Assembly (NCBI GenBank): GCA_003151625.1
Contig: PLYC01000010.1
Span: forward strand, 4,283 to 68,282
Direction: 5' to 3'
DNA from: Candidatus Doudnabacteria bacterium
GTDB lineage: Bacteria; Patescibacteriota; Doudnabacteria; UBA920
Length of the DNA stretch: 64,000 bases
Part shown: in pieces, positions 26,700-56,852 of the stretch
Layout: every line of letters starts with the position of its first letter
Numbering within the stretch: the first letter of the stretch is position 1
Notes under the pieces: generated by a model
What the model saw: the letters and a program-made list of their open reading frames with translations, nothing else
What the model was told of the DNA's origin: nothing
Databases searched by the model: none
Position numbers and translations under genes: made by a program

Positions 26700-28286
26700 T
26701 TAAAAAATCCTTTTTACCACATCCATAACCTGCCGGGACTGGCGTATGCCAAGTTTATAGGAAACAAACAAAAAAGCGAGGAGGGCAGCGCCTACCGAAA
26801 GGCCGGATTGGATTATTATCCCCAAAGTGGTATGGGTATTTACCAAAGGGGCAAAAATATAAATCGCGCAATAACCAACCAAACCCATTACCGTGCTTGA
26901 AGCTAAAATTTTAAAAATAAACGCTCCAACTTCAGAGTCAAACTCCGCTAGCTCGGCATTGTCTTTATGCAAAAACTGCCGCAAAAAAATAAACATTAGT
27001 ATTGCATCTAAAGTGCAGGCAATGGCAAAACCCGAAGCAATCCCAATAAGACCAAAGTTTACGCCTAAAACGTAAGCTAAAATAATATCCACAACAATGG
27101 AGCATAAATTAACAATGACCGGAATAATAGTATTTTGACGGGCATAAAAACTGCGGGAAAACAAAGGCGAAAGGCTTTGGCCAATAAGCGACAGCGATAA
27201 AATTCCGAAAGTCGTAAACATCAGCACGGTATCGCTCCAGTTGAATTTTCCGTGGCCATATATTATGCGAACAATATAAGCCCTGAAAATTATCATTAAA
27301 ATGGAAATGGGAATGATAAAAAACAGCACCATCATAACATTTTGCCCTAAAGTTTTTACAAAAGCTTTATTGTCTCTTTTGGCGTAGTGCTCCGAAAGCA
27401 AAGGAAAAGAAGCGGCAGATATGGACAGCGCAAAAACGCCCAAAGGAGCGGCCTGCAAATTATTGGCAAGATTAAAAATGGTTACAGAGCCGGCGGCCAA
27501 AATCGAACCGACCGTGGTGCCGACAATGAGGCTAATTTGGGAAATGTCCATGCCAATAATCCGGGGAATAAAAAGTTTGGCGATTTTTTTGAGCGCCGGT
27601 TCGCGCCAGTCAATAACCGCGTGCCAGCGCCAGCCGAAACGAATGGCTTCGGGAATTTGCACCAGCATATGGCAAAGGGCGCCTAAAATTACGCCATAAC
27701 CCAAACCCATAAGCCCAAAATGCGGGTAAAAAAAGAACAGCCCGAAAATTATGCCTAAATTGTACATAATCGGCGCAATGCTCAAAACCAGGAACTTTTT
27801 GCTGGCTGTTAAGTAGCTGGTAAAAATATTGGATGCCGTAAAAATTATGGGCGAAAGCAAAAACAGCCGCATAAGCTGTACGGTCCTCTCGAGTTTTTCT
27901 CCACTAAAACCGGGCACTAAAAATTTCGTTAGCGGGGTGGAAAGCATAAACATAACCAAACAGACCAAACCCATACCCAAGACCGAAATATTCAGCACCG
28001 AGCCGGCAATCCGGTTGGCGCGGTCTTTGTCTTTTGTCAGCCATTCCGTAAAAATCGGAATTAAGGCCACCGACAGCGTGCCCAGTATCAGTAGGTTGAA
28101 AATGAAGTCCGGGATACGAAAAGCCGCGTAATAAATATCCAGGGTGTTGCCGACCCCGATTTTGCCGGCAAGCAAAGGATCGCGAACCAATCCCACAAGT
28201 TTTGACAGCAGCGTAAAAAAGCCCACAATAATTGCGGCTTTGGAGACACTAAAATTTTGTTCGAGATTTTTAAGTTTATTGAACAT
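26700..28286 (-). CDS. murJ: Lipid II flippase MurJ (MviN)
   Basis: 528-aa polytopic membrane protein with the MurJ N-terminal signature SKLVGLVRDPLLAGKIGVGNTLDIYYAAFRIPDF. Confidence 0.85.
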   Translation of the reverse strand: MFNKLKNLEQNFSVSKAAIIVGFFTLLSKLVGLVRDPLLAGKIGVGNTLDIYYAAFRIPDFIFNLLILGTLSVALIPIFTEWLTKDKDRANRIAGSVLNISVLGMGLVCLVMFMLSTPLTKFLVPGFSGEKLERTVQLMRLFLLSPIIFTASNIFTSYLTASKKFLVLSIAPIMYNLGIIFGLFFFYPHFGLMGLGYGVILGALCHMLVQIPEAIRFGWRWHAVIDWREPALKKIAKLFIPRIIGMDISQISLIVGTTVGSILAAGSVTIFNLANNLQAAPLGVFALSISAASFPLLSEHYAKRDNKAFVKTLGQNVMMVLFFIIPISILMIIFRAYIVRIIYGHGKFNWSDTVLMFTTFGILSLSLIGQSLSPLFSRSFYARQNTIIPVIVNLCSIVVDIILAYVLGVNFGLIGIASGFAIACTLDAILMFIFLRQFLHKDNAELAEFDSEVGAFIFKILASSTVMGLVGYCAIYIFAPLVNTHTTLGIIIQSGLSVGAALLAFLFVSYKLGIRQSRQVMDVVKRIF

Positions 28287-28297
28287 TTAAAAATTGT

Positions 28298-28378
28298 CTA
28301 CTAAATACTAATCGTTCTAAAAATACTAAACTCCCATGAGGCCCTTTAGTACTTTTAGAGTCTTTAGTATTTAGTAGA
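28298..28378. repeat. CTACTAAATACTAA-family long inverted repeat (copy 1)
   Basis: gtctactaaatactaatcgttctaaaaatactaaactc...gagtctttagtatttagtagag: ~36-bp arms, near-perfect. Confidence 0.8.
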
Positions 28379-28380
28379 GG

Positions 28381-30612
28381 CTATCGTTTGGACAACACCA
28401 GACCCAAAAAGTAGTCTTTATCCAGTATTATATCAGAGTTTAGGCTGTCTGTGTTAAGGGTTTGGGTTTGAAAATTTTTCCAGGCAATCTGGCGACCGGT
28501 AAAATTTACAGTCCAGTTAAAATCCAAATTTGTACTGCCGATTTGTTTTTGCAGAAGCAGGCTGTATTTATCAACATCGCTTAATTTAAAGGGTAGTTGG
28601 TAAATTAGCTTGACCGTACGGCTTTGGCCGGCATTAACATTTAGCCAATTGCCGTAAAAAGTTTTTCCGCTTTCTTGGCCAATATATGTCCCGGTGACCA
28701 CATCTTTCACGGAATTTTTTTCCCAATTGTAAACGTCTGGGTCTACCTGGTAATTTTGGCCGACCGGATAATTTAAAATTTGGTAATCAAATCCTATATT
28801 GCTGACAAGTTTGCTTCCGAGCGGCACATAAATTCTCATAAAACTGTTATTAAAGGTCCCGGGTAAATTCGGCATTTTATTAGTTCGGGTTATGTCCACT
28901 TCATTGGTTATAGTTCCATCGTCCCCGATTGTAGTAGCCAGATTAATTTTCTGGTCAATGTAAAGATCAGTTTTTGTCGCGCCAAGGTTGCTGGTTACCA
29001 CAGACAAATAGTCGCGGTCAGTATTGTTAACCGAACCAGCCCAATTAAATTCCTTAAACTGGTTTTCCAAACCGGTGTCGCGGGAATAGGCAACTATCTG
29101 CTTGTTATTCAAATTATCCTGCAGGCTTTGGATAATTTGCGGCCATGCCGAAGAAGGGCTTTGGCTAATTTTTTGCAAAAGTATTGGTACCAAATCGGCC
29201 AAAAGTTGTTTGGGGGCATTAGTCGGTAAATCGTTGCTCATAGTGGTCACCGCCTGGGTCTCTTCTACAAAATTATCCGAGGACAATGTCACACCGTAAT
29301 TGGGAAGTTTAATTGAGCCGGTAATTTTTAGCCAGTCTACAATTATATTCGGGGTCATAGCAATCACCACATCCGGGGTTTCTCCTCCCTCCATCTCATA
29401 AAAGTCGCTGATTTTAGAAGCCGATAATGGAAAATCCGCGAACCAATTAGCGTCTCTCATATACCAGTTGCCGCTGACTTTCAGCAATGGTGTTGGCGGT
29501 TGGATATTTTGGGCCAGTTGATTATCTATATCATATATACTGCTAACATTGATTCTACTTATTTGTCCGTTATTGATTTTTAAATTTCCAAAAGTGCCTA
29601 TAAACCCTCCGCCTGCCCGAAGTTCGTTATTATTTTCAAACAAAACTAAAATGTTTTTGTCCCCTTTTAGCAAATTTTCGGCCAGCCCAAACACCATACT
29701 AAAATTGCTCAGGGTAAATTGGGCAATTTGCAGCTTAGTTTTCAAATCCACAAAGTTTTCGCGGACGGATGCGGGCAGTAAGCCCGGATCAATTTTATTC
29801 ACAAGAGTGTTGGCTCGAGAAATTTTATTGGAAATCCTTCCAATGCCGGCATCTATATTATCCAAAGCCTGACCTGTCGGCCTGCTACTGCTACTAAGGC
29901 CGCTGGGCCCAATTTGCAACTGTTTAATTTGATTCTGTAATGCAATAAAATCCTGCCCGCTTGAAGAAACCAGTGAGGCGGCTTCCAATAAACCATCAGC
30001 AGTTTGCTTTTGCGGCAAAATTGACATTAACTGATTTAATAACAGTCCGGAAGCGGCCAACTCGTTTTGACCTTGATTAAAGGCCTGAAAAGCCAGGGCA
30101 AAACGATTATTAGCAGTTGTAAAATCCTGACCGGCCAATGCGTCTTTTGCTTGGGACAAATAAGTGTTGCCCAGGGCGGCCGTTTGCATTACCTGATTTT
30201 TAACCTCGAGGCCGTTTGCAATTAAATGTAAAGACGCAATGCCACAATACCCTAAAACCGAAATGCAACAAAAGATCAATAAAGTTCTGGCAAAATTTTT
30301 TTGTACCACGAGTTTTAATCGCTCGGGAAAAGTTTTTTTTGTGGTTTTAATATCCCGAATTAACGCCCGGTAGGTTTTTTGCGGCGGAGTGATTATCAAA
30401 AATAAAGTTTTTTGGTAAAGAGCAACGATTTTATTACCGACAAACTTCAGCACCGATATAATAGCCAGCCCGGTAAAATAAAAAATATTCAATAAAAAAT
30501 CCAAAACTTTTGACAAAAACCGCACTGGCCAAGGTTTATTTTTGGCTTTTACAGTTAAAAAACTTCTGTGATGCGTATACAATATGAATTTTTTTGGAGC
30601 TTTGGTTTTCAT
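28381..30612 (-). CDS. DUF4012-family membrane protein
   Basis: N-terminal TM segment plus ELRAGGGFIGTFGNLKINNGQI (DUF4012 GGGF signature). 743 aa. Confidence 0.55.
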   Translation of the reverse strand: MKTKAPKKFILYTHHRSFLTVKAKNKPWPVRFLSKVLDFLLNIFYFTGLAIISVLKFVGNKIVALYQKTLFLIITPPQKTYRALIRDIKTTKKTFPERLKLVVQKNFARTLLIFCCISVLGYCGIASLHLIANGLEVKNQVMQTAALGNTYLSQAKDALAGQDFTTANNRFALAFQAFNQGQNELAASGLLLNQLMSILPQKQTADGLLEAASLVSSSGQDFIALQNQIKQLQIGPSGLSSSSRPTGQALDNIDAGIGRISNKISRANTLVNKIDPGLLPASVRENFVDLKTKLQIAQFTLSNFSMVFGLAENLLKGDKNILVLFENNNELRAGGGFIGTFGNLKINNGQISRINVSSIYDIDNQLAQNIQPPTPLLKVSGNWYMRDANWFADFPLSASKISDFYEMEGGETPDVVIAMTPNIIVDWLKITGSIKLPNYGVTLSSDNFVEETQAVTTMSNDLPTNAPKQLLADLVPILLQKISQSPSSAWPQIIQSLQDNLNNKQIVAYSRDTGLENQFKEFNWAGSVNNTDRDYLSVVTSNLGATKTDLYIDQKINLATTIGDDGTITNEVDITRTNKMPNLPGTFNNSFMRIYVPLGSKLVSNIGFDYQILNYPVGQNYQVDPDVYNWEKNSVKDVVTGTYIGQESGKTFYGNWLNVNAGQSRTVKLIYQLPFKLSDVDKYSLLLQKQIGSTNLDFNWTVNFTGRQIAWKNFQTQTLNTDSLNSDIILDKDYFLGLVLSKR

Positions 30613-30653
30613 TTAACTGCGCGTTAATTGGCGTAAAAAAATTAAATTATTCA

Positions 30654-31769
30654 TTACGCTCTTACGGTTTTGTGCCCGTATCTTGAAATATTTAACAATA
30701 TCCCAACGGCCGCTAAATTTGCCATTAAGGAAGTACTGCCATAACTAAAAAAAGGCAATGGGATCCCGGTTAAGGGCAATAAATTTAAAATGGCCGCGAC
30801 GTTAATTAAAGCTTGGAGAGTAATCCACGATGTAATCCCCAAGGCCACCATTTTGCCAAAGGTATCGGGAGCATTCCGAGCAATTTGAAAACCCTTTAAA
30901 GCAAACAGGGCAAATAATACTAAGGCCGCGAGCACTCTAAAAAATCCCAATTCTTCGGCGAAAACCGCGAAAACGGAATCGTTTATTACCGCCGGAAGGT
31001 AATTATGTTTTTGCCTGGACAACCCGTAGCCAAAACCCCACAAGCCGCCGGAACCAATGGCCAACAGCGCCTGATTAATTTGGTAGCTAATGCCTTTGGG
31101 GTCTAAAGCCGGGTTTAAAAAAGTAGCCAGACGCTTTACACGATAAGGTTCAATTTTAATGAACACATAAAGGGCTAAAATGCCGCCGATAAAACTGTAA
31201 AAAAAATATTTCCAATTTATTCCGGCCGCGAATAACATAAAAAAAGAGACCAATAACAGAACTAGCATTGTGCCAAAATCCGGCTGCCACAAAATGAGCG
31301 CTCCAAACAGAGCAATGATGCACAAAGACGGCAAGAGCCCGTAATAAAAATCGTTTAACGCGCCCTGTTTTTTTTCTACCCAGCTGGCCAAATACAAAAT
31401 TATTACCAACTTAGCAAGCTCGGCCGGCTGAAATGTAGCGGGGCCAAGACGTACCCATCTTGCGGCACCGCCCGCGGCAACTCCAAGACCGGGTATTTTA
31501 ACCAGCATTAACAAAAAAAGTGAAATAAAAATTAAATAAGGTAAATATTTTTGCCAAAAATGATAACCCAATTTACTGCAAACATACATCGCAATTAAGC
31601 CAACGACTGCCCCATATAGAACTTGATGAACAATATAGTAGCTGGTGTTCCCGAAAACCGCAAACGATTGAACGGCAGAAGCAGAATAAAGTACCGCTAA
31701 TCCATACGCTAAAAGCCCCAGTGTAATGAGCAAGAGAGTGTAGTCGAGTTGTTGATTTTTTTTTAACAT
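30654..31769 (-). CDS. ftsW: SEDS-family peptidoglycan glycosyltransferase FtsW/RodA
   Basis: 10-TM SEDS architecture with the conserved C-terminal region ..LPLTGIPLPFFSYGSTSL. Confidence 0.85.
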   Translation of the reverse strand: MLKKNQQLDYTLLLITLGLLAYGLAVLYSASAVQSFAVFGNTSYYIVHQVLYGAVVGLIAMYVCSKLGYHFWQKYLPYLIFISLFLLMLVKIPGLGVAAGGAARWVRLGPATFQPAELAKLVIILYLASWVEKKQGALNDFYYGLLPSLCIIALFGALILWQPDFGTMLVLLLVSFFMLFAAGINWKYFFYSFIGGILALYVFIKIEPYRVKRLATFLNPALDPKGISYQINQALLAIGSGGLWGFGYGLSRQKHNYLPAVINDSVFAVFAEELGFFRVLAALVLFALFALKGFQIARNAPDTFGKMVALGITSWITLQALINVAAILNLLPLTGIPLPFFSYGSTSLMANLAAVGILLNISRYGHKTVRA

Positions 31770-33208
31770 TTAGAATAATTTTTAACCCCCTGCTTAAACT
31801 GGTCACCGCGGTCAACGTAACTTTTAAACATGTCAAAGCTGGCGCAAGCGGGACTAAGCACAACTACGTCTCCTGATTCCGCGACCGATTCAATTTGTTT
31901 AAAAATTTCTTCAATATTTTTTGCACCCTCAATAATCCTATTTGTATCTTCTCCTAAAGATTGTTTTATGCGGCCGGCTTCTTGGCCAATTAAAATTATC
32001 TTTTTGATATTTTTCCTCGAATTGACAGCTCTGCCAAGTTCCGTAAAGTTGGAATTTTTAGAGGAGCCTCCCAAAATAATAATCAATGGCTCGGTAAAAG
32101 ATTGCATTGCGGCAATGGCTGTTTCCGGAGTAGTCGAAAAAGAATCATTATAAAATTTAACGCCGCTTTTTTTAGCCACGAACTCCAAGCGATGCTCGAG
32201 GCCTTTAAAATTTAGGGCGGCTTTTTTTATAGATTCTAAATCTGCTCCTGCCGAGCGGGTAGCCAAAATTGCAGCCATAACATTGTCAAAATTATGCTCG
32301 CCTCGCAAGTGCAACTGACTAACCGGTAAATGAAAGTTTCCCGTAAAAATTTCTTTATTTTCAACGAATGCTGCGACAATTTTTCCGCGTTCTTGGTTTT
32401 GACGGCCGTCAAAACCAAGAACGTATTTTTTTCGACTGAAATAAAGTTTTTTGCCTTTACTCTGTTCTCCAATCAGAACTGAATTTTCAAAGTCTGCGTT
32501 AATTATCGCAAAATCATCAAGCGTTTGAAATTTGGTAATAGATGATTTGGCGTCAACATAATCTTTTTGATTAGTATGATAATCAAGGTGTTCGCTTGTA
32601 ACCATTAAAACTACGGCAATGTGTGGGCTTTTTTCCAAATCTTGAAGTTGAAAACTCGACAGTTCGTAAACGACATAATCATCAGCACCTAAATTATCAA
32701 GAATCTCCAGGGGTTGAGTTTTGCCAATGTTGCCTGTTAAGTAGCATTTAGCGTTTAGCTTATAGCTCTTAGCCAGCAGAATCTCATATATAAGGCTCGA
32801 TGTAGTCCCTTTACCTTTTGTCCCAGTAATCCCAATAATTTTAGCCGGACAATGTTCAAAAAACCATCTGGTCTGGCTGGTTATCACGAGTCTCCCTCTC
32901 CCTTTGGGGGAGGGCTGGGGTGAGGGTTCTGTCCACCGATTAATATCCGGATTATTTAGCTTAATACCCGGACTCCTAAACGCAATATCAAACCCGGCCA
33001 ATTCTTTAAATGCATGCGCCCCAAAAATAAAATTTAGTCCCAATTTCTCAATTTTCAATTTCTCAATTTCGCTCCAACTCTCCCACGGTCTTTGGTCAAA
33101 CAGCACCGGTTTGATTTTATGTTTCAATAAATAAGCTGTTACAGCTTTCCCCTCTTGCCCATAACCTAAAACACCCACAAGTTTTCCTTTTAAATCTTGC
33201 AAATTCAT
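31763..33208 (-). CDS. murD: UDP-N-acetylmuramoylalanine--D-glutamate ligase (contains an in-frame palindromic insert)
   Basis: VLGYGQEGKA N-terminus, GITGTKGKGTTSSLI P-loop. An extra PSPQPSPKGRGR segment is encoded by a G/C-rich palindrome. Confidence 0.9.
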   Translation of the reverse strand: MNLQDLKGKLVGVLGYGQEGKAVTAYLLKHKIKPVLFDQRPWESWSEIEKLKIEKLGLNFIFGAHAFKELAGFDIAFRSPGIKLNNPDINRWTEPSPQPSPKGRGRLVITSQTRWFFEHCPAKIIGITGTKGKGTTSSLIYEILLAKSYKLNAKCYLTGNIGKTQPLEILDNLGADDYVVYELSSFQLQDLEKSPHIAVVLMVTSEHLDYHTNQKDYVDAKSSITKFQTLDDFAIINADFENSVLIGEQSKGKKLYFSRKKYVLGFDGRQNQERGKIVAAFVENKEIFTGNFHLPVSQLHLRGEHNFDNVMAAILATRSAGADLESIKKAALNFKGLEHRLEFVAKKSGVKFYNDSFSTTPETAIAAMQSFTEPLIIILGGSSKNSNFTELGRAVNSRKNIKKIILIGQEAGRIKQSLGEDTNRIIEGAKNIEEIFKQIESVAESGDVVVLSPACASFDMFKSYVDRGDQFKQGVKNYSKC

Positions 33209-33285
33209 GCACTTATTTTACCATAATTTACCCAATAATAAAAATCGGCTCGAAATGAACCGATTGGGTATATATAGAAAAAAGA

Positions 33286-33531
33286 TTATAAGCTACTAAG
33301 CGAAATTACATAATAGAATTTTCCTTCTTTTCCATAGTCAAACTCTACTCTTGCTGAATGTTCGTCCCTCTTGACAATTTTGCCCTTCAAACTCGCGGCC
33401 TTTGGTTTGGGGTCATATGACAAAATTGGATCGGCTTCAATAGCAGCTGTAATAATTCTTGCCGGTACAATTACCTCATTACCTATTTGTAAATCCTGCC
33501 TTTCAAATTTTTTAATATCGGGAGACGGCAT
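33286..33531 (-). CDS. Hypothetical small protein
   Basis: 81-aa ORF, no motif recognised. Confidence 0.35.
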   Translation of the reverse strand: MPSPDIKKFERQDLQIGNEVIVPARIITAAIEADPILSYDPKPKAASLKGKIVKRDEHSARVEFDYGKEGKFYYVISLSSL

Positions 33532-33544
33532 AATTGGTAAAAAA

Positions 33545-34174
33545 TTAATTAATGCTAAATTTTATCAGCGCCTTTTTTATGACCGAATCCCTTGTTTCAA
33601 ACCCAGGCAGAAATTCTACCTGCTCCTTATAGCTGATATCATCAAAATAACCCAATTGCGACCTGAAAAGTTTTTCGTTAAACTGACCTCCAAATTCTTT
33701 TTTTCCGGTCTCCGATATTTCCTGTAACGAATAATAATCTTTAAGAATAAAATACATATCAACGTAATCTTTCCACTTGCTTCCCTGCCCTATGGCAAAT
33801 GCCTTCATTGCGGCCAACGTCAGCAGGTTGGGCATTTTTATCACGCCACCAAAATTTTCAGGGTAAGCAATATTATAAGGAAAGCGAAAAAAAGTAAATT
33901 TTACCCCATTAAGAACTAGCGTCAATTCGCCAAGTTTGTTGACTATAATTTCGTTTGGAACCTTAAAATCTAAAATTTGATTTAATAAACTTTGGTTGCC
34001 GAATTTTGCCGGGGAAAAAAGATCAAAATCAACAGATCGGCGATGGCCTATTTGCAAAGCCACGGCCGTACCCCCCACTAAGCCAAAGTTTTTTGAAAAC
34101 TTTCCAATTAATGGCAGAAGTTTTACCTGCTCTTTTGTTAAAACTTCTTTATGCAGACTTGACATATTTATCAA
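33545..34174 (-). CDS. AbiEii/AbiGii-family nucleotidyltransferase (type IV toxin-antitoxin toxin)
   Basis: GLVGGTAVALQIGHRRSVDFDLF: a Gly-rich loop plus hDhD nucleotidyltransferase motif typical of PF08843. Confidence 0.55.
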   Translation of the reverse strand: MINMSSLHKEVLTKEQVKLLPLIGKFSKNFGLVGGTAVALQIGHRRSVDFDLFSPAKFGNQSLLNQILDFKVPNEIIVNKLGELTLVLNGVKFTFFRFPYNIAYPENFGGVIKMPNLLTLAAMKAFAIGQGSKWKDYVDMYFILKDYYSLQEISETGKKEFGGQFNEKLFRSQLGYFDDISYKEQVEFLPGFETRDSVIKKALIKFSIN

Positions 34175-34421
34175 AATATAAATTAAAATAATGTTTAATC
34201 TCCGGACGGTAATTTTGCCTCCCGAATTTATCGGGTGTAGATTTTTCGCGGAAAATTTTCGCGGTTTTTTTTATTCCCAGGATTTTTATCATTCCTTGGA
34301 CATCGTCCCAATCGCCGCAATTTAAAACATGCTCCACGATAGACGCCTCGTCGAGCTTGTTTAAGTCTTTAACATACCACACCAGATATGGCCTTTTTTT
34401 GATAAATTCGTGGATACCCAT
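34149..34421 (-). CDS. Small ORF overlapping the AbiEii gene start (possible cognate antitoxin)
   Basis: 90 aa with a 26-nt overlap onto the toxin gene. No motif recognised; shorter than typical AbiEi. Confidence 0.3.
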   Translation of the reverse strand: MGIHEFIKKRPYLVWYVKDLNKLDEASIVEHVLNCGDWDDVQGMIKILGIKKTAKIFREKSTPDKFGRQNYRPEIKHYFNLYFDKYVKSA

Positions 34422-34441
34422 ACCTGTATTAAAGCAAATTT

Positions 34442-36010
34442 TCAGCTTTTTCTCAATGCGTATCCCGGCAATTTTTCTGTCAATTTACCTTCAGCCAACG
34501 CGGCTTTGCCATTAACAAACACATAGTCTATGCCTTCGCTGTATAAATAAGGATTTTCGTAAGTTGCTTTGTCTACAATTTTTTGTGGATCGAAAATTAC
34601 CAAATCCGCGAAATTTCCGATTTTTATTTCTCCACGCTTTTTTAATCCCATTTTTTTTGCCGGGCCGCCAGTAAGTTTTTTTATGGCCGTTTCAAGAGGT
34701 AGGGTACCCTTTTTTATAACATCGCTTAAAAATTTCGGGGCTGTGCCAAAAGATCTCGGATGTACCAAACCGGCGCCTACCGGCTGGTTGTTAAACCCGG
34801 ATCCGTCCGTGCTAATAAAGGACAGAGGATGGAGCATAAGTTCGTCCACCTGTGACATATCCAAATTTTTTTCAAATACCAAAACCTCACTGCCCCCGTT
34901 TTGAATCAGGTGTAGCACCGCCTGTTCGCTGGAGCACTCCAAATTTTTTGCAATTTGGCCAATAGTTTTCCCGGAAAAATTAAGCCGATTTGCCGTTGAG
35001 GCGACACGAACTTCGGAAAACTTAATCTCCAGATTATTTAAATACATTAATATTTTATTTTTTTGCACCGGGTCGGCAAAATGTTTTAACATAATTGTGC
35101 GCCCCCCCTCTATGGCCCACTTTGGCAGATAACTGTACAAAGGTTGCCACATTATGTCGTAGGGGTAAAGATCAAAATGAACCTGCGTGCCTTGGTGGAA
35201 AGCGGAGTCTATTAAATTTATCACTTCGGGAAATTTTTCCCAATTTTGTTCGTTCCTAACTTTTAAATGGGAAATTTTTAAATTAACCTCGGTGCTTTTT
35301 GCAATGTCCAAAGCTTCATCGAGTGCTTCTATAATTTCTCCGCCCTCACTGCGCAAGTGAATGGAAAACAAACCGTTATAGCTTTTAACAATTTTTGCCA
35401 ACTCAAAAAGTTCGAGCTCGGAAATTATAATTTCGTGCGCGTAGGAAAGTCCGCTGGAAAGACCAAACGCTCCGGCTTCCAGGCTTTCAGAAAGAGCGGT
35501 TTTTAAAGCTTCAAGCTCCTGTTTTTCCAGGCTTCTGATTTGGTCACCGACAATAGCGCGGCGCAGGGTCGAATAGCCGACTAAGCTTGCAATGTTACAG
35601 GCAAAACGCTTGCGCGACAACTCTTCTATAAATTCGCTGTAAGAAGTCCAGTTTACGTTTACTCCTTCCAAACTGTGCCACTTTTGCAGAGAAAATAGAG
35701 CTTCATGCGTTAGCAGAGGAGCCACGCTGGCGCCGCAGTTACCAACTAATATTGTAGTAAAGCCCTGAGTTATCAAACTTTGCAATCCAGGGTTGTCGAA
35801 TATCTTCCAATAACTGTCACTGTGATTTTGTAAATCTACAAAACCAGGCGTTAAAATTTTTCCTTTAGCATCAATGGTAATTTCGGCTGAGGAATCAATT
35901 TTTGCCGCAATATTTGCGATTTCATCGCCCTGGATAGCCACATCCAAAATCTCCCCGGGCTTTCCGGTGCCATCGATTAGCGTAGCATTTTTTATCAGTA
36001 GGCTATACAT
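34442..36010 (-). CDS. Amidohydrolase-superfamily D-aminoacylase (N-acyl-D-amino-acid deacylase-like)
   Basis: N-terminal LIKNATLIDGTG..ILTPGFVDLQNHSD metal-binding motif. 522 aa. Confidence 0.7.
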   Translation of the reverse strand: MYSLLIKNATLIDGTGKPGEILDVAIQGDEIANIAAKIDSSAEITIDAKGKILTPGFVDLQNHSDSYWKIFDNPGLQSLITQGFTTILVGNCGASVAPLLTHEALFSLQKWHSLEGVNVNWTSYSEFIEELSRKRFACNIASLVGYSTLRRAIVGDQIRSLEKQELEALKTALSESLEAGAFGLSSGLSYAHEIIISELELFELAKIVKSYNGLFSIHLRSEGGEIIEALDEALDIAKSTEVNLKISHLKVRNEQNWEKFPEVINLIDSAFHQGTQVHFDLYPYDIMWQPLYSYLPKWAIEGGRTIMLKHFADPVQKNKILMYLNNLEIKFSEVRVASTANRLNFSGKTIGQIAKNLECSSEQAVLHLIQNGGSEVLVFEKNLDMSQVDELMLHPLSFISTDGSGFNNQPVGAGLVHPRSFGTAPKFLSDVIKKGTLPLETAIKKLTGGPAKKMGLKKRGEIKIGNFADLVIFDPQKIVDKATYENPYLYSEGIDYVFVNGKAALAEGKLTEKLPGYALRKS

Positions 36011-36092
36011 ACAATCTTCTACTAAATACTAAACTTTCTAAATGTACTAAATTGCGTAATTGAAGTTTAGTATTTTTAGACACTTTAGTATT
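36007..36092. repeat. CTACTAAATACTAA-family long inverted repeat (copy 2)
   Basis: cttctactaaatactaaactttctaaatgtactaaa...tttagtatttttagacactttagtatttagcagaa. Confidence 0.8.
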
Positions 36093-36110
36093 TAGCAGAA
36101 ACTTTTTAGT

Positions 36111-37229
36111 TTATCCCAAAAAATATATCACCACTCCCATTATGCTCGTGACTGCGGCGATTATCCAAAAACGCATAGTGACTTTGGCTTCCGGCCAGCC
36201 GAGAGCTTCAAAATGATGGTGAAGCGGCGCGGACAAAAAAACTTTCTTTTTTAAAAACTTTTTTGAAAATAACTGGATTATGGTAGACACAGCTTCCATT
36301 AAAAATACAAAGCCCACAACGGGCAAAATAAATACGGAATTTGTCAAAAATGCCACTATGGCCAAAAGAACTCCTAGCCCCATTGACCCTGTGTCTCCCA
36401 TAATAAACCTTGCCGGGAAAACATTAAACCACAAAAATGCCAAAAGACTGCCGCAAATTACTCCTATAAAGGTCGCTAAGTCGTGTTTGCCCTGTAAAAA
36501 TGCAATTAGCCCAAAAGCAAAAAATGAAATCATTAAAGTGCCGCCCGCAAGCCCGTCTAAACCGTCTGTCTGATTCACGGAAAAACTGGTGGCAATTACG
36601 ACGAAAATAAAAAATGGAATAAATAGCCAGCCCAAATGCAGATTCCCCGCAAATGGGATGTGCACAAAATCAAAACCCAGTTTGAAATAAAACCACCACG
36701 CGCCAATTGCCGCTACGATTGAATACAGCACGAGCTTAAACCTAAACCGCAATCCCCTGCCATTGTGGCCACGATGGTTAATATCCAGCCAATCGTCTAT
36801 TAACCCAACCAGCGATGCGCCAAGTAAAGCTCCCAATGGTAAAAGAGTCTCTTTGCGGGAATAAAAGTCAAAATCATTAAAAACATCGACATGTAAAACC
36901 CGGTCAAAAAACCAAAATACAAACATTAAAATTACCAGCGTGCCCCAGACTAGTATCCCGCCCATAGTTGGCGTTCCTGCTTTGTGCTTATGCATTTCCG
37001 TAAATAAGGGAGTGCTCCCGTCGTTGCGGATTTGTTTACCAAGCTTATTTCTGTATAAAAATCTTGTAAAAAGCGGGGTAACCGCAAGAGCAAAAATAAA
37101 ACCCAGAGACGTTAAAGCAAAAATTTTAGTCAAAACCGAAAATCCCATCATATTACGTTTATTGTACCATAAAAAAGCTGGTCTGGAAAATGTCAGCCTG
37201 ATGTCTAAGGTGCTCTTTGGCATTGCCAT
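36111..37229 (-). CDS. mraY: Phospho-N-acetylmuramoyl-pentapeptide transferase (true start probably the Met at ~37151)
   Basis: KAGTPTMGGI, DDWLDI, and a polytopic membrane profile. Confidence 0.85.
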   Translation of the reverse strand: MAMPKSTLDIRLTFSRPAFLWYNKRNMMGFSVLTKIFALTSLGFIFALAVTPLFTRFLYRNKLGKQIRNDGSTPLFTEMHKHKAGTPTMGGILVWGTLVILMFVFWFFDRVLHVDVFNDFDFYSRKETLLPLGALLGASLVGLIDDWLDINHRGHNGRGLRFRFKLVLYSIVAAIGAWWFYFKLGFDFVHIPFAGNLHLGWLFIPFFIFVVIATSFSVNQTDGLDGLAGGTLMISFFAFGLIAFLQGKHDLATFIGVICGSLLAFLWFNVFPARFIMGDTGSMGLGVLLAIVAFLTNSVFILPVVGFVFLMEAVSTIIQLFSKKFLKKKVFLSAPLHHHFEALGWPEAKVTMRFWIIAAVTSIMGVVIYFLG

Positions 37230-37271
37230 ATCTAAATGTCAAAGAGCACTTTTGACATTTTTACGACAGAG

Positions 37272-38234
37272 CTATTCCCAATTAAAACTGGTTTCTACAG
37301 CCGACTTGAGCTTTAAAGTATCTCCTTCCCGGTTTTGGCTGTCCAAAACTAAAATAATTATTTGATGCCCGCCTATGGCTACTTTAGTCGCCATTGCGCC
37401 ATTGGCTTCGTTAGTAAAGCCGGTTTTAACAGCTTGGATATCGGGATGATTTTTTATAAGCAAATTGGTGGCAGTTGCGGAATAAATTTTCCCCAAAGCC
37501 CCGCTGAATTTATAGCCGGTCATCCGGCCTAAATCGGTAAAATCTGTAAAATGCTGGGTATTGGTGATCAAAAGTTTCAAATCCTCGGCCGTGGAATAAT
37601 TGTCGCTGTTGTCAAAACCCATTGGGTTGCTAAAACTACTGTTGACCATTCCTAAAACAGCCGCCTGACCATTCATAAGATCGACAAAATTACTTCCAGA
37701 CGATTGTGAAGTAAAATCCGCAAGCGCTTTTGCCGCGTCGTTGCAAGAGCCGATTAACATAGAGTTAAAAACGTCCAAAGCCTTAACTTCGTCCCCGATA
37801 GCGAGGCCTAAATCTGGCTTAACATTTAAAATATTCTTACTCGTAATTGCAAAAGTTTTGTTGAGATTGGAGTTATTATAAGCCGCTAAGGCTGTCATCA
37901 ACTTTGTTAAACTGGCTATAGCCAATTTCTGGGTAGGATTTTTGCTTAACAATTCCTGGCCGCTGTCTAAATCAAAAACCAGAAAACTTTGGGCGCTTAC
38001 ATCGGAAAGGTCCGGATTCTTTGTCTGAATTATGGAAGTTTGGGGATTATCTTTAGGCTTATTTATTATTGGTGCGGGGACCGCCGTGCTTGCCCCCAAA
38101 ACTTCCGGCTTATACGTTTGGCTAAGAGCAATATCTTGTGTTGATAAAATCGCTGTTGTTTGAATTAAAACAAGCAACAGCACAAACATTAGCCAATAAG
38201 GAAGAATTTTAAATAGTTTTGTTTTTACGGGCAA
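37272..38234 (-). CDS. Serine-type D-Ala-D-Ala carboxypeptidase (S11, DacA-like)
   Basis: SxxK active site in ASLTKLMT, SGN-like motif, signal/TM N-terminus. Confidence 0.7.
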   Translation of the reverse strand: MPVKTKLFKILPYWLMFVLLLVLIQTTAILSTQDIALSQTYKPEVLGASTAVPAPIINKPKDNPQTSIIQTKNPDLSDVSAQSFLVFDLDSGQELLSKNPTQKLAIASLTKLMTALAAYNNSNLNKTFAITSKNILNVKPDLGLAIGDEVKALDVFNSMLIGSCNDAAKALADFTSQSSGSNFVDLMNGQAAVLGMVNSSFSNPMGFDNSDNYSTAEDLKLLITNTQHFTDFTDLGRMTGYKFSGALGKIYSATATNLLIKNHPDIQAVKTGFTNEANGAMATKVAIGGHQIIILVLDSQNREGDTLKLKSAVETSFNWE

Positions 38235-38381
38235 TCTTTAAAATTTTATTAGTTTCTATAATTATACCTCATTGACAAAACTTTTAACTGTGGATAAAAT
38301 GATTAAGCGTTAATAATTAATAGCTCATAATACTTAACTGTTAGTCAGTTATAAATTATTTGTTATAGGCTACTTCAATAT

Positions 38382-38702
38382 ATGGCGGAAATAATTCTGA
38401 ACGAACAAAATTTTGATTCTGAAGTCTTAAAGTCAGACTTACCGGTAATGATAGACTTTTGGGCGGTTTGGTGCGGCCCCTGTAAGGTGCTTAGCCCGAT
38501 TGTTGAGGAAATTGCCAAAGAATACGAAGGCAAACTTAAAGTTGGCAAAGTAAATGTGGACGAAAACAATGCTTTGGCCGCCAAATACGGCGTAATGAGC
38601 ATCCCGACATTAAAATTCTTTAAAAAAGGCAAGCTTGTAGGAGAAATGATTGGTGCCGCTCCTAAAACCAGTGTAGAGGCCGAAGTTAAAAAACATATTT
38701 AG
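38382..38702 (+). CDS. trxA: Thioredoxin
   Basis: WAVWCGPCK active site, 106 aa. One of only two clear plus-strand genes in the window. Confidence 0.9.
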   Translation: MAEIILNEQNFDSEVLKSDLPVMIDFWAVWCGPCKVLSPIVEEIAKEYEGKLKVGKVNVDENNALAAKYGVMSIPTLKFFKKGKLVGEMIGAAPKTSVEAEVKKHI

Positions 38703-38891
38703 TAGGACTTACGCGTTTGAGGCAAAAATGAACAAAAATTATATCTTGCTGCCTCAAACCGCAAGGGCTTGGCCGATTACTTCGTTATTTTGCTGCGGTT
38801 TTTGTCGACGTAGTCAAACTACGTCTCCAAAAATCCTCACAAAATGCCTCGTACTCGGCCAAGCGCGTAAGTCCTATTTAGAACCAAATTT

Positions 38892-38925
38892 AAAAGAATC
38901 CTCTCACGAAAGAGAGGATTCTTTT
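38892..38925. terminator. Perfect bidirectional terminator hairpin between the convergent trxA and ATPase genes
   Basis: aaaagaatcctctc-acgaaa-gagaggattctttt. Confidence 0.6.
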
Positions 38926-40843
38926 AAATTTGATGCGATTCACCTGGGTTTAAAACTGTTTTTTGCATTTCGACTGCTTTATTTGGGATAACCGCCGCTG
39001 CCACAGGGGCAGCATGAGTCTGAATTTGATTTTTGTATTCCGTTTCAGGAGCCATTGCCGGAGGATTTGCTTTTGAGGGCTGGCTAAAGATTTGGCTAAC
39101 CGCTTCACTTGTCTGGCGGTTTGCCTGGTAAATTTTTTCCTGATGAAGGCTGGCAATCTGATCCCAGATCGGATTTTCCTTCTTTTGCTGTCCGCGGTCT
39201 TGCCCAAAGTTCTTGTTTGACTGCCTGGGTTGGTGGTTGGAATTTTGTTGCGGCGGCCTGTTAAAACGATCTTTTGATTTTTGGGGTCTGTCCGTATTTC
39301 TGTGCTCCTGATGTTTTTTTTCGAAGTTTTGCTTTGGAGCAGCGGACATATTGGCTTGTTGCGACAATTTTTGGGGTACGGGAATTTTTTGAACAATTAC
39401 TTCCGGTGCTGGTTCAGGTTTTTCTTCTTGAGGCTCCGCCTGGGATTGTCCTTGAGACGTAACCGGCTGATTTTGGTCGGCGGTCGCTGTTTGATCTTCC
39501 GTTTGCGGTGTCCCAATTAGCACCGCGGCTTCCTGATGATATTCCGCGCCCATCCAACGGGAAATTTTTTCTTCAACCTCCGCCACCGGGTTGGCATAAC
39601 GTTCCCGGGAAACTTTTAGAACTTTTTCCGAGTTGCCCGTTAAGTGTGCGGGGTTCGGCGAAAGTGTAATCGCGGAAAAAGGGTCGGAAGCGACACCGTT
39701 AATCATCAATTTTAAAATAATCGAATATTTTGGTAAATTAACCAGGTCGCTGGGGGTAAAAATCGGCTCAAACTCGGTTTCCAAAAATTCCGCGTCCACA
39801 GCGCCGATTCTAAATACGACAATTGTCCCGACGTTGCCAAAAATCGCGTCCCTAACCTTCGTACTCTTGTCTTCTTCCAACTGGGCAATGTACTGATGCC
39901 CGACAATTAAATTTAAACGGTATTTGCGGGCTTCGCTTAAAATAGTGGCAAAACTTTCCGTGGCAAAATTTTGGAATTCATCCACGTACAAATAAAAATC
40001 TTTTCTCTCTTTTTCCTCGATATCGGTTCGAGACATGGCAGCCAGCTGAATTTTGGTAACCAGCATCGCGCCGAGCAAAGCCGAATTATCTTCACCGACT
40101 TTGCCCTTTGACAAATCCATAATCAGGATTTTTCGATTATCCATTATTTCGCGCAAATCGATTGTACTTTTGGGCTGACCAACTATATTACGAATAATCC
40201 CCGAACTTAAAAACTGTCCGACTTTATTTTGAATCGGGGCTATGGCTTCGGTGCGATACTTTTCATTATAATTTGCAAACTCATCGACCCAAAAAGCCCG
40301 AACCATAGGGTCTTTAATATTATCAACAATTTTCTTCCGGTATTTTTTATCCACATACATCCTGGTAATACCCAATAAAGTATTCCCCGGACTGTCCAGC
40401 AAAGCTAAGATAGTATTGTTCAAAATATATTCCATTCTGGCCGACCACAGATTGGCCCAGATTTTTGTAAACACACCCATCAAGCCAGATGCCACCAAAT
40501 GCTTAAATTTGGGGTCTACAGACTCTAAAATGTTAAAGGCCACCGGATGCTCCAAATCCGCGGGATTAAAGTAAACCACGTCGTTAATACGGCTAGCCGG
40601 GACACAATCCAGTATTCTTTGTACCGAATCCCCATGAGGGTCTAAAAAAGCAATCCCATGGCCATTTTGGATGTCCTGAATAACCATATTCTCCATAAGG
40701 GTCGTTTTCCCCATTCCGGTTTTTCCTATTAAATACATGTGCCGGCGGCGGTCATCGGTTTTAATACCAAAAGGCACTTCCTTGTTTCGGAAGTTAGTTT
40801 TGGCAAATACGGTAATTAAATTTTCATTGTTTTTGTTTTCCAT
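38924..40843 (-). CDS. VirD4/TraD/TrwB-like (type IV secretion coupling protein-like) P-loop ATPase with a Q/P-rich low-complexity C-terminal tail
   Basis: LIGKTGMGKTTLM Walker A, FLDPHGD (compare VirD4 DPKGE), YLYVDEFQNF Walker B. No N-terminal TM helices. 639 aa, with ~200 aa of Q/P/N-rich tail. Confidence 0.5.
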   Translation of the reverse strand: MENKNNENLITVFAKTNFRNKEVPFGIKTDDRRRHMYLIGKTGMGKTTLMENMVIQDIQNGHGIAFLDPHGDSVQRILDCVPASRINDVVYFNPADLEHPVAFNILESVDPKFKHLVASGLMGVFTKIWANLWSARMEYILNNTILALLDSPGNTLLGITRMYVDKKYRKKIVDNIKDPMVRAFWVDEFANYNEKYRTEAIAPIQNKVGQFLSSGIIRNIVGQPKSTIDLREIMDNRKILIMDLSKGKVGEDNSALLGAMLVTKIQLAAMSRTDIEEKERKDFYLYVDEFQNFATESFATILSEARKYRLNLIVGHQYIAQLEEDKSTKVRDAIFGNVGTIVVFRIGAVDAEFLETEFEPIFTPSDLVNLPKYSIILKLMINGVASDPFSAITLSPNPAHLTGNSEKVLKVSRERYANPVAEVEEKISRWMGAEYHQEAAVLIGTPQTEDQTATADQNQPVTSQGQSQAEPQEEKPEPAPEVIVQKIPVPQKLSQQANMSAAPKQNFEKKHQEHRNTDRPQKSKDRFNRPPQQNSNHQPRQSNKNFGQDRGQQKKENPIWDQIASLHQEKIYQANRQTSEAVSQIFSQPSKANPPAMAPETEYKNQIQTHAAPVAAAVIPNKAVEMQKTVLNPGESHQI

Positions 40844-40932
40844 CGTTCAAAATATCCCCTGTCTTTACAACTACTGATTGGCGGCTACTTTACTAATTTA
40901 AGATAACGCACATTAGTATATTAGTAAAGCAA

Positions 40933-42288
40933 TTATAAAACTTCTGCCGTTGGCAGGTTCGAAGGGGCCCTGCCCTTTTTGCTTTCTACAGTGTGTACGC
41001 CAGCAGGCACCAAAGTTGTTTCGGTTGTTATTGGGAAGTGATACAAAGTGGCGATTTCCTCTACGCTCAGCAAAAACTTAGGACTACCAACATACATACT
41101 GCGGTTTTTGTAACCTCTTAAAAACCAATACTTACGGCGTTTGGTTTCTCTTTCTAAAAATGATTTTTCTAAAGTATCCGAAACCAAAGCATTTACTTTT
41201 GTCCAATTCGCGCGGTCTATTTTTAAAGTATTATGCACGCCGGCGCCACCGCCCGGGCTAAGATGCCTCATTGAGCCAATAATTTCAGTGCGCTTAGTTT
41301 TATCAAATTGGTCTTTAGGCGCTATATAAATGGTTCTAATTTTTGCATTGAAACTGGCTTTGTTGAGCTTTTGCTCAATTAAAGCGACTTTTTCTTTTTC
41401 GCCTTCAGTCATACTTATCCAATTATTTCTGGGCTTGTTTTCAGGTTCGGCATGTCCATGTCCGCCGCCAAAAAAAGTCTCAGAGTAGCTGAATTTGGCA
41501 AACCATTCAAACGGCAAAAGTAAAATACTGCTTAATGTTATTTTGTGCGGCATTTCTTCCCCGGTCAGATCCTTTATTTTTCTTTCAGCCCTTTCCGCCC
41601 ACTCGTTATTTTGGATTGGCTGAATCATAAGCTGAATAGCCAATACTTCATCGGGGTTTATTCTTTCCATTGTTTCGATAGTGCTGGTTAGAGAATCAAT
41701 GACTTTTTCTTCCGCAGAAGGGTGCTCAAAATCCTTATAAGTTTTTATTGGGATAACGCTGTCCTGAACCATTTTCCATTCGGTGCCAAAAAAATCATAG
41801 AGACCATCTTCGTTATGGTGTACGTTTATATGAAATTTTTCCATATAGTCATCGACAACGGAAATTTCGGCGGATGGATACTGGGAATAAAACGCCGACT
41901 CAACCAAATGCTGATATCTTTTTGGCGTTCTTATCACAAATGAGACGTGCCCACCCAGGCTGATAATTTCCAAAGAGTACCAAAGCTGAAAGCGGCCCTG
42001 CATATATTTTTGTTCAAAGGTAATACTGGCGTGCAGAGCGTGCATTTGGGCAAAAATATTTTCAACCGCCATGGTGCTGGCTCTGTTTTCTTTTGGTACG
42101 CGGATTTCTAAAAATACCCATTCGGTGCCTCTGACAAATTGCCCCTGAATTTCTTCCAAGTATTCAAAATAAAGCATGTAAATCAGGCCTAAAACAAAAA
42201 GCACCCATCCGTAATAGGTAACTACTACCAAAAAGGCTATATGGAAAACATCGTTAAAATTTGGAAATATGCTTGTTAAAACTTCCAT
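40933..42288 (-). CDS. Hypothetical membrane protein (two N-terminal TM helices) co-located with the VirD4-like ATPase
   Basis: 451-aa ORF with a hydrophobic N-terminus; no known motif recognised. Confidence 0.4.
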   Translation of the reverse strand: MEVLTSIFPNFNDVFHIAFLVVVTYYGWVLFVLGLIYMLYFEYLEEIQGQFVRGTEWVFLEIRVPKENRASTMAVENIFAQMHALHASITFEQKYMQGRFQLWYSLEIISLGGHVSFVIRTPKRYQHLVESAFYSQYPSAEISVVDDYMEKFHINVHHNEDGLYDFFGTEWKMVQDSVIPIKTYKDFEHPSAEEKVIDSLTSTIETMERINPDEVLAIQLMIQPIQNNEWAERAERKIKDLTGEEMPHKITLSSILLLPFEWFAKFSYSETFFGGGHGHAEPENKPRNNWISMTEGEKEKVALIEQKLNKASFNAKIRTIYIAPKDQFDKTKRTEIIGSMRHLSPGGGAGVHNTLKIDRANWTKVNALVSDTLEKSFLERETKRRKYWFLRGYKNRSMYVGSPKFLLSVEEIATLYHFPITTETTLVPAGVHTVESKKGRAPSNLPTAEVL

Positions 42289-42307
42289 TTTTTATTTCAT
42301 TACTTCA

Positions 42308-42377
42308 CTTCTACTAAATACTAACCTTTAAAATTTCTGCTTTAGCATTTTTAACTTCATTAGTATTTAGTAGACGC
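42308..42377. repeat. CTACTAAATACTAA-family inverted repeat (copy 3, shorter)
   Basis: cttctactaaatactaacc...cattagtatttagtagacgc. Confidence 0.7.
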
Positions 42378-43459: not shown

Positions 43460-43641
43460 GAATTTATTTTTAGAAATTCAGCCTAACCGGAGTACCGGCT
43501 TATTGGAACAAAGTCCAAGGGTAGATCGACAACGATAGAAATTAATTTGTAAAAGACTAACAACTCTTCTAACGGCTAGCAATTATTTCCAATAGTATAG
43601 CATAAAATTAGCTTAATTGTCAAATACCCCTACATAAAATA

Positions 43642-44601: not shown

Positions 44602-44617
44602 ATTTTTTAGAAGCGAA

Positions 44618-44704
44618 GTTAAATGCGAAAAAATTAATCGAGCGAAACAAACGCGAATTCGCGTTTAAATTCGCGTTGCAGAAGCGGCATTTTTTTCGCT
44701 TCTA
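44618..44704. mobile_element. MITE-like element (copy B, secF-secD spacer)
   Basis: tagaagcgaagttaaatgcgaaaa...acgcgaattcgcgtttaaattcgcgtt...cgcttcta. It shares the ends, the internal GCGAATTCGCG palindrome and the ttcgcgtt segment with copy A. Confidence 0.55.
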
Positions 44705-47006: not shown

Positions 47007-47008
47007 AT

Positions 47009-49588: not shown

Positions 49589-49640
49589 AGTTCAAGAATC
49601 TTAAAAACCTTGCGACCTATAAAATTCACGGCCGTGAATT

Positions 49641-51511: not shown

Positions 51512-51570
51512 TTTGTTAGTAGATAGTAATTAGTTATTAGTAATTAATACTTAGAAAATTGTAACTGCTT

Positions 51571-56746: not shown

Positions 56747-56852
56747 ACAAATTAACACAAATTAGGAACTAGTATGCACAAAACACGAATCTAATGTGAT
56801 TCGTGTTTATTAGTGCAGTATTAGTGTTAATTTGTATCCTTTAATTTGTATC

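Follow-up and report, generated by a model that had tools for sequence, protein, structure and literature searches.

A palindromic repeat with TACKAAA heptamer arrays at gene boundaries of Patescibacteria

Introduction

The described systems closest to the element that concerns us here are the repetitive extragenic palindromes (REP) and their relatives, the bacterial interspersed mosaic elements (BIME) and the REPINs. These are imperfect, extragenic palindromes, present in tens to hundreds of copies that lie at the ends of genes or separate genes transcribed together. Each consists of two inverted units of ~35-40 nt, which give a hairpin of ~85 nt with a CTAC/GTAG tetranucleotide at its ends, and the copies have no target duplication, persist vertically at their loci and are occasionally copied. 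Much the same can be said of a palindromic repeat of which three copies, E1, E2 and E3, lie in a stretch of 64,000 nucleotides from a Candidatus Doudnabacteria genome (contig PLYC01000010.1, positions 4,283 to 68,282; this whole stretch is called the window below). We call it the TACKAAA element, after the heptamer (K = T or G) repeated in its arms. It is A+T-rich, with arrays of a 7-nt motif whose variable positions avoid pairing, whereas a REP is a small G+C-rich hairpin, and the GTAG/CTAC foot shared by the two may be coincidental.

E1-E3 belong to a lineage-specific, non-coding palindromic repeat of a clade of the Candidate Phyla Radiation (CPR), a repeat that is real, widespread, modular and confined to gene boundaries. 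The family is kept at fixed junctions and is occasionally copied, lost or swapped; its motif is conserved and its pairing avoided. Because the arms keep a 7-base motif while avoiding perfect pairing, the element is not a simple terminator, and not a classical REP or miniature inverted-repeat transposable element (MITE). Our literature search found no description of a TACKAAA palindrome, and this family of ~65-85 bp repeats between the genes of many CPR bacteria is apparently undescribed.

Three other systems are relevant to the comparison. The Correia/NEMIS and ERIC/IRU repeats are palindromic, ~100-150 bp long and co-transcribed with neighbouring genes, and their long hairpins are RNase III substrates that affect the mRNA level. 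Correia elements, however, have a TA target duplication and a site for integration host factor, while the TACKAAA element has no duplication and has motif-array arms with enforced mismatches. In the irregular hairpins that form the intercistronic RNase III sites of phage T7 (R1.1 type), an internal loop separates a lower from an upper stem, and the upstream message ends up with a 3' hairpin. We favour this functional analogy, but the T7 sites are unrelated in sequence and each is unique, whereas our element is a genomic repeat family in which cleavage would be expected by analogy only. The ends of Tn7, Mu and Ac/Ds, finally, also combine a terminal inverted repeat with several short direct repeats per end, mirrored and with the two ends not identical; they come with target-site duplications and coding partners, neither of which is seen for the TACKAAA element.

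The genomes of Patescibacteria are about 1 Mb in size and strongly streamlined. To our knowledge, almost nothing is known on how their transcription units, mRNA ends and translation starts are organised.

Results

We first consider the three copies in the window. An earlier note on this DNA had pointed to inverted repeats in three spacers between minus-strand genes. With up to 2 mismatches allowed, the 14-mer CTACTAAATACTAA is matched 6 times in the window where 0.70 are expected, and 0 of 100 shuffles reached 6. All six are the ends of three inverted pairs (E1, E2, E3), with none elsewhere in the window. A sequence-only profile was built from 44 family members; E3 is not part of this model, yet the profile recovers it at E=5.7e-8 and finds nothing besides E1-E3 below E=0.15. 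The window therefore has exactly three copies, and the shuffles and the profile search rule out an origin by chance or low complexity. The spacers and gene identities of the note are confirmed by the six matches, the profile and Pfam.

E1 (28297-28378; 60.7 bits, E=8.6e-18) is a full element between the stop codon of a DUF4012 gene (28381) and the ATG of murJ (28286). Its 34-nt arms (28297-28330 and 28345-28378) have 85% complementarity around a 14-nt centre (28331-28344). In alignment A1, the left arm has the plus-strand heptamer array TACTAAA, TACTAAt, (t)TCTAAAa, TACTAAA (28299-28330), and the mirror array TTTAGTA..TTTTAGA..TTTAGTATTTAGTA is at 28345-28376. E2 (36018-36099; 60.5 bits, E=1e-17) is also full and lies between the mraY stop (36111) and the ATG of an amidohydrolase gene (36010); the start at 36007 proposed earlier is about 11 nt too far left. 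Its arms (36018-36051 and 36066-36099) are ~34 nt long at about 85% complementarity around a 14-nt centre (36052-36065), or 51 nt at 76% if extended, and the outer stem has a single A/C mismatch (CTAC versus GCAG). E1 and E2 share a local variant, the third heptamer being TCTAAAA on both arms of each. E3 (42310-42374; 29.2 bits) is a short element between the stop of a Sigma70_r4/HARE-HTH gene (42377) and the ATG of a gene for a 451-aa membrane protein (42288). Its outer arms (42310-42325 and 42359-42374) are intact, but only these outer 15-16 bp are kept and the inner heptamers are degenerate. The earlier picture of almost perfect arms of ~36 bp is a fair one for E1 and E2 and does not hold for E3.

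Each copy fills its spacer, starting 3-12 nt past the upstream stop and ending 7-21 nt ahead of the next ATG, and all flanking genes are on the minus strand. In Pfam the neighbours are murJ and DUF4012 for E1, amidohydrolase and mraY for E2, and Sigma70_r4+HARE-HTH for E3, whose other neighbour, the 451-aa protein, has no match. The downstream ATG is 10 nt past the element end for murJ (26700-28286), 7 nt for the amidohydrolase gene (34442-36010) and 21 nt for the membrane-protein gene (40933-42288), with no Shine-Dalgarno (SD) sequence ahead of any of the three. As sense-strand RNA, E1, E2 and E3 fold at -36.9, -31.0 and -23.3 kcal/mol (z of -7.4, -6.1 and -5.4 against shuffles).

Two degenerate relatives had also been proposed, at 51500-51560 and 54760-54800. 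These are not members, because nothing beyond E1-E3 scores below the E-value given above; the former is a one-sided run of TACTAA-like hexamers and the latter a direct repeat of CTAAGCACTA (x2) upstream of secA. A CtsR/CIRCE-like operator is ruled out for the 54760 repeat, as the gene downstream is secA and not a chaperone gene. A possible remnant hairpin upstream of a TrwB-like gene (40888-40929, cTTTACTAAT...ATTAGTAAAg, 10-bp arms) is not a significant member either (E=0.87). Outside the elements, the TACKAAA heptamer has about 5 and 4 extra copies per strand in the 64 kb, against ~8.6 expected from base composition; this lack of enrichment rules out a DNA uptake sequence.

The anatomy of the family can be derived from 189 distinct elements. 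The arm reads (t/c)(t/c)TCTAC TAAA TACKAAA n3 TACKAAA n2 TACKAAA (TACKAAA), and in the whole element the TCTAC...GTAGA ends enclose two mirrored TACKAAA arrays round a free centre of 6-30 nt with highly diverse sequence. By position, the heptamers are spaced 7 (329 cases), 10 (149), 9 (147) and 7 (51) nt from start to start, and the modal total length is 83-87 nt. The ends are well conserved (T at -2 in 93%, C at -1 in 92%). The arms have ~25-30% G+C and are direct arrays, within which the folds give weak local hairpins alone. The element is found in either orientation.

Whether the repeat exists elsewhere was the question on which the earlier note let its idea stand or fall, and further copies are found. 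Scanning genome_contigs, with one genome per species, for CTAAATACTAA-N30-60-TTAGTATTTAG gives 61 loci, and scanning metagenome_contigs for CTACTAAATAC-N36-66-GTATTTAGTAG gives at least 120. The same element is present in at least 181 public contigs, almost all of them from metagenome-assembled genomes (MAGs) of Patescibacteria, and wherever the architecture is complete the record carries the label Patescibacteria, Saccharibacteria or Doudnabacteria. There are 0 copies in 2.9 M viral_contigs, which rules out a viral origin. Moranbacteria have a rearranged subfamily (L001 4905-5546, L023 5852-5967, L024 5115-5216; L numbers denote the loci collected) with the same TACTAAA/TACGAAA heptamers, TTTAC...GTAAAAC ends and additional right-hand arrays, so that the heptamer is shared across CPR classes. 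The coding DNA of the window is 76-85% identical to several element-bearing loci, which places the window in the same clade; within the clade GroEL is 80-85% and ribosomal protein L5 74-85% identical. The density of copies is 3 in the 64 kb of the window and up to 6 in 7.8 kb (L059), and a single MAG, CAZQFQ01, has at least 14 contigs with copies.

The few matches in non-CPR MAGs are a different, CTAAA-type repeat. Hairpins of ~8-nt CTAAAnnn units are seen in L010, L031, L039, L040, L045, L048, L052, L053 and L060, in MAGs labelled Omnitrophota, Firestonebacteria, Dehalococcoidia, Kiritimatiellales, Chitinophagaceae, Chloroflexia and WWE3. They met the search pattern by chance overlap and look like a broader class of stop-codon-rich A/T palindromes.

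We turn to the gene context, with genes called by a dicodon-scored caller. The element occupies 161 of 1027 co-directional, 11 of 104 divergent and 7 of 101 convergent junctions, and 0 copies lie inside genes. The median distance is 4 nt from stop codon to element and 17 nt from element to ATG, and some upstream open reading frames (ORFs) terminate on the element's own TAA. The same junctions recur: rpsF|ssb|rpsR, L23|L2, L29|S17, L24|L5, groES|groEL, S18|efp and the position upstream of L3. Homologues of the 451-aa gene downstream of E3 have the element upstream in 6 of 15 cases. Two copies neighbour tRNA genes, one 5 nt past tRNA-Thr and one between a gene and tRNA-Val, 20 nt before the tRNA. 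In the divergent regions of L029 and L057, a canonical TTGACA-17-TATAAT promoter lies upstream of the element, which argues that the element is transcribed and is not itself the promoter.

Most genes of the window are without a recognisable SD sequence, and many of its spacers are 1-20 nt of A/T. Canonical promoters of the TTGACA-17/18-TATACT/TAAAAT form are present in the window at 43594-43623 (-) and 38272-38300 (+).

The next question is how the element behaves at orthologous junctions. That of E1 has an orthologous element in L021, and that of E3 has a full element in L030. L093 lacks both E2 and E3, with neither the amidohydrolase gene nor an element at the E2 position, and a full element precedes its TrwB-like gene, at a junction that in the window holds the weak 40888-40929 hairpin alone. 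In 132 orthologous-junction comparisons with flanks ~80% identical, the median spacer is 107 nt; 73 carry the TACKAAA family and 54 have none of its heptamers. Among the replacements are palindromes of the CACGGAT, CACTAAG, TGACA, ACGCGGAA and CTAAAnn types. Since relatives carry other families at the same junctions, the TACKAAA family may be one of several interchangeable "dialects". The replacement by palindromes of unrelated heptamers also points to a generic or structural role, or to several factors.

The window itself has long, intergenic, A+T-rich palindromes or repeats of other motifs (TGACA/TGTCA, ACGCGAA/TTCGCGT, CACTAAT and CTAAGCACTA x2), at 15503-15668, 8058-8149, 44602-44664, 56740-56842 and 54760-54800.

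Between orthologous elements, heptamer identity is 0.88 at H3 and 0.96 at H4, values biased upward by the fact that both partners had to match the arm pattern; the spacers are at 0.48, the centres at 0.63 and the flanks at 80%. Modules of ~100 nt that persist at core-operon junctions, with a motif more conserved than the neighbouring coding sequence (an estimate subject to the same upward bias), are hard to explain as junk.

One clean empty site is available. L070 reads TAG ct|aaaaaattattaacc..ATG where L044 and L120 read TAA..TCTAC...GTAGA aaaaattattaac..ATG, and no duplication is seen in this comparison. Direct repeats of 2-8 bp at offsets 0-5 of 188 elements are likewise all at the level of shuffled controls. 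Copying is suggested by the inner regions, which are more alike among copies at different junctions of the same locus than between loci (0.25 vs 0.11, p=1.6e-5), and by six near-identical pairs at different junctions, for example those upstream of L4 and of L2 in L059.

Ahead of ssb, efp, L2 and L5, the short leader that separates the element from the ATG forms a conserved palindrome of A and T alone (AAAATTATTAACAATAATTTT or AAATTTATTTATAAATTT; L044 4180-4400, L120 5520-5720, L070 230-262), and it persists at the empty site of L070.

We now ask whether the arms are kept for their pairing. The pairing of symmetric positions was tested on alignment A1 (44 sequences) with 500 column shuffles. 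Standard pairs fill 84.8% of the cells against 87.1 +/- 0.5 in the shuffles, all 500 of which are at least as high, and covariation scores 0.043, below the 0.060 of the shuffles. Mismatches fill the three K columns in 32, 26 and 33 of the 44 sequences, G-C never occurs there, and the first column of the 3-nt spacer is unpaired in 36. In 85 well-formed elements, TACGAAA is opposite TTTCGTA 0 times at heptamers 2-4 against 9.2, 6.8 and 14.4 expected (Fisher p = 9e-7, 5e-5 and 3e-12). The commonest K configuration in this set is TGTT|TTGG, followed by its one-step derivatives. The outer heptamer alone shows paired double K changes, 6 G/G vs 6 mixed in copies not selected by the search pattern, and in the centroid fold of typical members an outer stem of 12 bp is the sole helix. 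A pairing-selected RNA structure is ruled out for the inner arms, since there is no covariation, pairing is below the shuffles and the sense strand has no advantage in energy. The suggestion of the earlier note that the element is a protein-binding site gains indirect support: the heptamer is kept in both arms while complementarity at the variable positions is at or below chance.

E1-E3 are the all-T, well-paired extreme of the family, and the G·U bias of these three copies does not generalise to it. Being of this variant, they should form strong hairpins in the mRNAs of the window's dcw region.

Discussion

The interpretation that we favour, to which we would give about an even chance, is a REP/REPIN-like element that is copied and then retained, shares a transcript with the adjacent genes and serves to punctuate them, its heptamers being recognised by a putative factor. 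New copies would arise in intergenic slots, or pass from one slot to another, with no target duplication, through a hairpin- or recombination-based route and not a DDE transposase, and joint transcription with the neighbouring genes would be the reason why they are tolerated or retained. Once transcribed, the outer A/U-rich stem of 12-16 bp would form a clamp hairpin that punctuates adjacent cistrons. Such a clamp could protect 3' ends or be a processing site for an endonuclease, as in E. coli REP or the T7 RNase III sites, and could also uncouple a downstream start that lacks an SD. The inner heptamers, largely unpaired, could then serve as a recognition array for a putative sequence-specific factor that propagates the element or acts on the RNA.

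The REP/BIME-like character suggested by the earlier note is right in spirit: the element is extragenic and palindromic, and its placement and dynamics are those of REP/BIME/REPIN. Membership of the system of REP and its associated tyrosine transposase (RAYT) fails. Four RAYT-like Y1 transposase ORFs are present in the collected loci (L109 1322-1807, L110 159-815, L122 6686-7186, L168 3976-4464), with the motifs YFVT, MPNH.HG and Y..NNP. In the 1.17 Mb searched, the hairpins on either side of them are G+C-rich and headed by GTAG, as in GTAGCGGAGGCCACCGGCCTCC, and have no TACKAAA arms, which rules out the TACKAAA element as the repeat cognate to these ORFs. Three of the four loci look syntenic and are therefore not independent. 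Together, these ORFs and GTAG hairpins look like a classical REP-RAYT system in Patescibacteria. In the window, G+C-rich palindromes of the CCAATAGGCACCATTGG type are found at 16556-16607, 11172-11223 and 57251-57295, with no RAYT seen there.

Several results count against the interpretation that we favour. No mobilising enzyme was found for the TACKAAA element, the RAYT-like genes carrying other repeats, and the centres are very diverse, unlike those of a recently amplified mobile element. Many of the counts are not independent because most loci come from one clade, as the GroEL identities show. The orientation of the element, judged by arm asymmetry, has no significant link to gene direction (26:15, p=0.12) once orthologous junctions are collapsed, and the raw ratios of 28:6 and 44:21 that had suggested a bias shrank to this value. 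The sense strand has no folding advantage (sense more stable in 52 and antisense in 64 of n=117 co-directional copies, p=0.09). A purely structural RNA would not be expected to vary in a way that avoids pairing, and a site in double-stranded DNA accounts for this at least equally well. The co-transcription, hairpin formation, processing and stabilisation of the element are steps that we infer.

A bolder extension of this interpretation, which we put forward as tentative, is that interchangeable palindromic modules built of heptamers form a dedicated gene-punctuation system of the CPR. The clamp would display unpaired 7-nt arrays to a lineage-specific factor, whether nuclease, chaperone or DNA-binding protein. 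Almost all boundaries in need of a module would be marked by one, including those within the ribosomal-protein, groESL and rpsF-ssb-rpsR operons, in genomes that are largely SD-less, and TACKAAA would be one "dialect" among the CACGGAT, CACTAAG, ACGCGGAA and TGACA types that swap at the same slots.

The strongest of the rival explanations, unlikely as we judge it, takes the element as a platform in double-stranded DNA. TACKAAA would be the site of a sequence-specific DNA-binding protein (perhaps a global regulator, a nucleoid-associated protein or a factor at domain boundaries) arranged on mirror arrays, and the palindrome would be a by-product of the symmetry of the sites. The avoidance of pairing and the K mismatches described above look like selection against a long perfect palindrome with the sites kept, and these enforced mismatches are explained at least as well as by the punctuation and copying that we favour. 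The motif is kept in both orientations, the element is independent of orientation, and the same heptamers recur in the different arrangement of the Moranbacteria subfamily. With the 7/10/9/7 spacing, however, the sites do not all lie on the same side of the B-DNA helix, and the heptamer is not enriched outside the elements. Palindromes of unrelated heptamers replace the element at orthologous junctions, its position close against stop codons inside operons is not typical of operators, and no candidate protein was identified. A related suggestion of the earlier note, a partition (parS-like) site, is unlikely in view of the copy number, with dozens of copies scattered inside operons.

Less likely than either the double-stranded DNA platform or the interpretation that we favour are two further explanations. 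The first of these, an improbable one in our estimate, makes the hairpin a (bidirectional) terminator and the gene-proximal arm TTTAGTATTTAGTAGAA a -10-only promoter (TAGTAT) for mRNAs with short leaders. The copies between convergent stops, 2-13 nt from each side (L076, L113, L123, L148), and the copy 5 nt past a tRNA would suit a terminator. An ATG 7-25 nt past GTAGA without an SD would suit the promoter, as would the rare one-armed copies that face an ATG (L181 2818 and 7852). The TACGAAA variant, which would remove the A of TAGTAT, is found somewhat more often on the arm pointing away from the downstream gene (44 vs 21 raw), but the orientation bias is gone once orthologues are collapsed, and in ~26% of the copies it is the "dead" variant that faces the gene. 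Arms on their own are very rare; such half-elements are too few to serve as evidence for a promoter and are mostly degenerate full copies. An intrinsic terminator is rejected for E1-E3, which have no U-tract and no G+C-rich stem (their tails are ACAATTTTT, AGATTGT and AGTGAAG) and are not called by the consensus scan. They exceed and differ from the intrinsic terminators of the window, in line with the earlier remark that their arms are longer than a terminator needs; canonical ones are found elsewhere in the window, for example at 49614-49649 and 38885-38932. A sigma-70 promoter is also rejected, for the -10-like TAGTAT stands alone with no -35, while the same genome has canonical promoters that the scan does find (43623-43594 and 38272-38300). 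Elements inside the r-protein, groESL and rpsF-ssb-rpsR operons, together with the canonical promoters upstream of the elements in divergent regions, argue further against this cassette, and a promoter-only reading is rejected by the few divergent placements.

The inverted repeat at 38885-38932, a perfect 21-bp repeat with a 6-nt loop and flanking A and T runs between convergent genes, looks like an ordinary bidirectional terminator and contrasts with E1-E3.

The last explanation, a classical MITE that is a purely selfish deletion derivative of a DDE transposon with multi-heptamer transposase-binding ends (Tn7, Mu or Ac style), would account for the differences between the arms by distinct ends, and for the terminal inverted repeats with subterminal direct repeats, the dominant asymmetric configuration TGTT|TTGG with its one-step derivatives, the random insertion orientation, the presence or absence at junctions with near-identical paralogous copies, and the upstream ORFs that end on the element's TAA, but it is highly improbable because no target-site duplication of 2-8 bp is seen at any tested boundary, no separated F-only/R-only arm pair encloses an ORF, full-length partner or transposase in the loci examined (1.17 Mb), the centres are highly diverse and the arms conserved in orthologues, viral contigs have no copies and the junction slots are nearly always filled in streamlined genomes.

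Some other identities were considered and set aside. Rfam 15 gives no match at the gathering threshold, the best permissive matches being plant miRNA hairpins at 21 bits vs a threshold of 211. An integron attC site is rejected because the ends, TCTACTAAA / TTTAGTAGA, are unlike RYYYAAC / GTTRRRY and because the copies lie in a core-gene context, between mraY, murJ, r-protein and groESL genes, in all gene orientations. The Tas-associated TIGR arrays have two alternating repeats of 8-12 nt, 9-nt spacers, 5-15 tandem units and an adjoining Nop-domain gene (PMC12045711). Our 7-nt motifs are 0-3 nt apart and mirrored, in single units scattered between housekeeping genes, and this identity is rejected as well.

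If the modules are read by a specific factor, that factor would fill a gap in the picture of CPR gene expression and offer a way into the genetics of these organisms. If they are selfish, they would represent a hairpin element of a new type, able to spread with no target duplication through free-standing bacterial genomes of the most reduced kind. The enforced-mismatch rule, under which TACGAAA and TTTCGTA never face each other, is a peculiarity that is concrete and can be tested.

Other features of the window

Near the elements, a gene with an AbiEii-like toxin domain (33545-34174, -) lies among the cell-wall genes. A TrwB/VirD4-type coupling-protein gene (38924-40843, -) adjoins the 451-aa membrane-protein gene family found downstream of E3, and these two genes are possibly part of a type IV secretion-like cluster of Patescibacteria.

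The palindromic 8-mer ACGGCCGT occurs 7 times in the window where 0.73 are expected. It centres loop-less palindromes of 30-36 bp at 32388-32423, 46983-47016, 49614-49649 and 57532-57583, three of them perfect and one with 87% complementarity; one is within a murD-like ORF and the others are at gene junctions. The remaining occurrences are at 3681, 5110 and 34062.

At 6458-6794 (-), a tRNA-Leu(CAA) has its anticodon loop split by a 261-nt group I intron. The intron matches Rfam RF00028 (6526-6728, 66.9 bits), and the split tRNA, which is found with the intron option of ARAGORN, adjoins tRNA-Met and tRNA-Asp (6062-6223).

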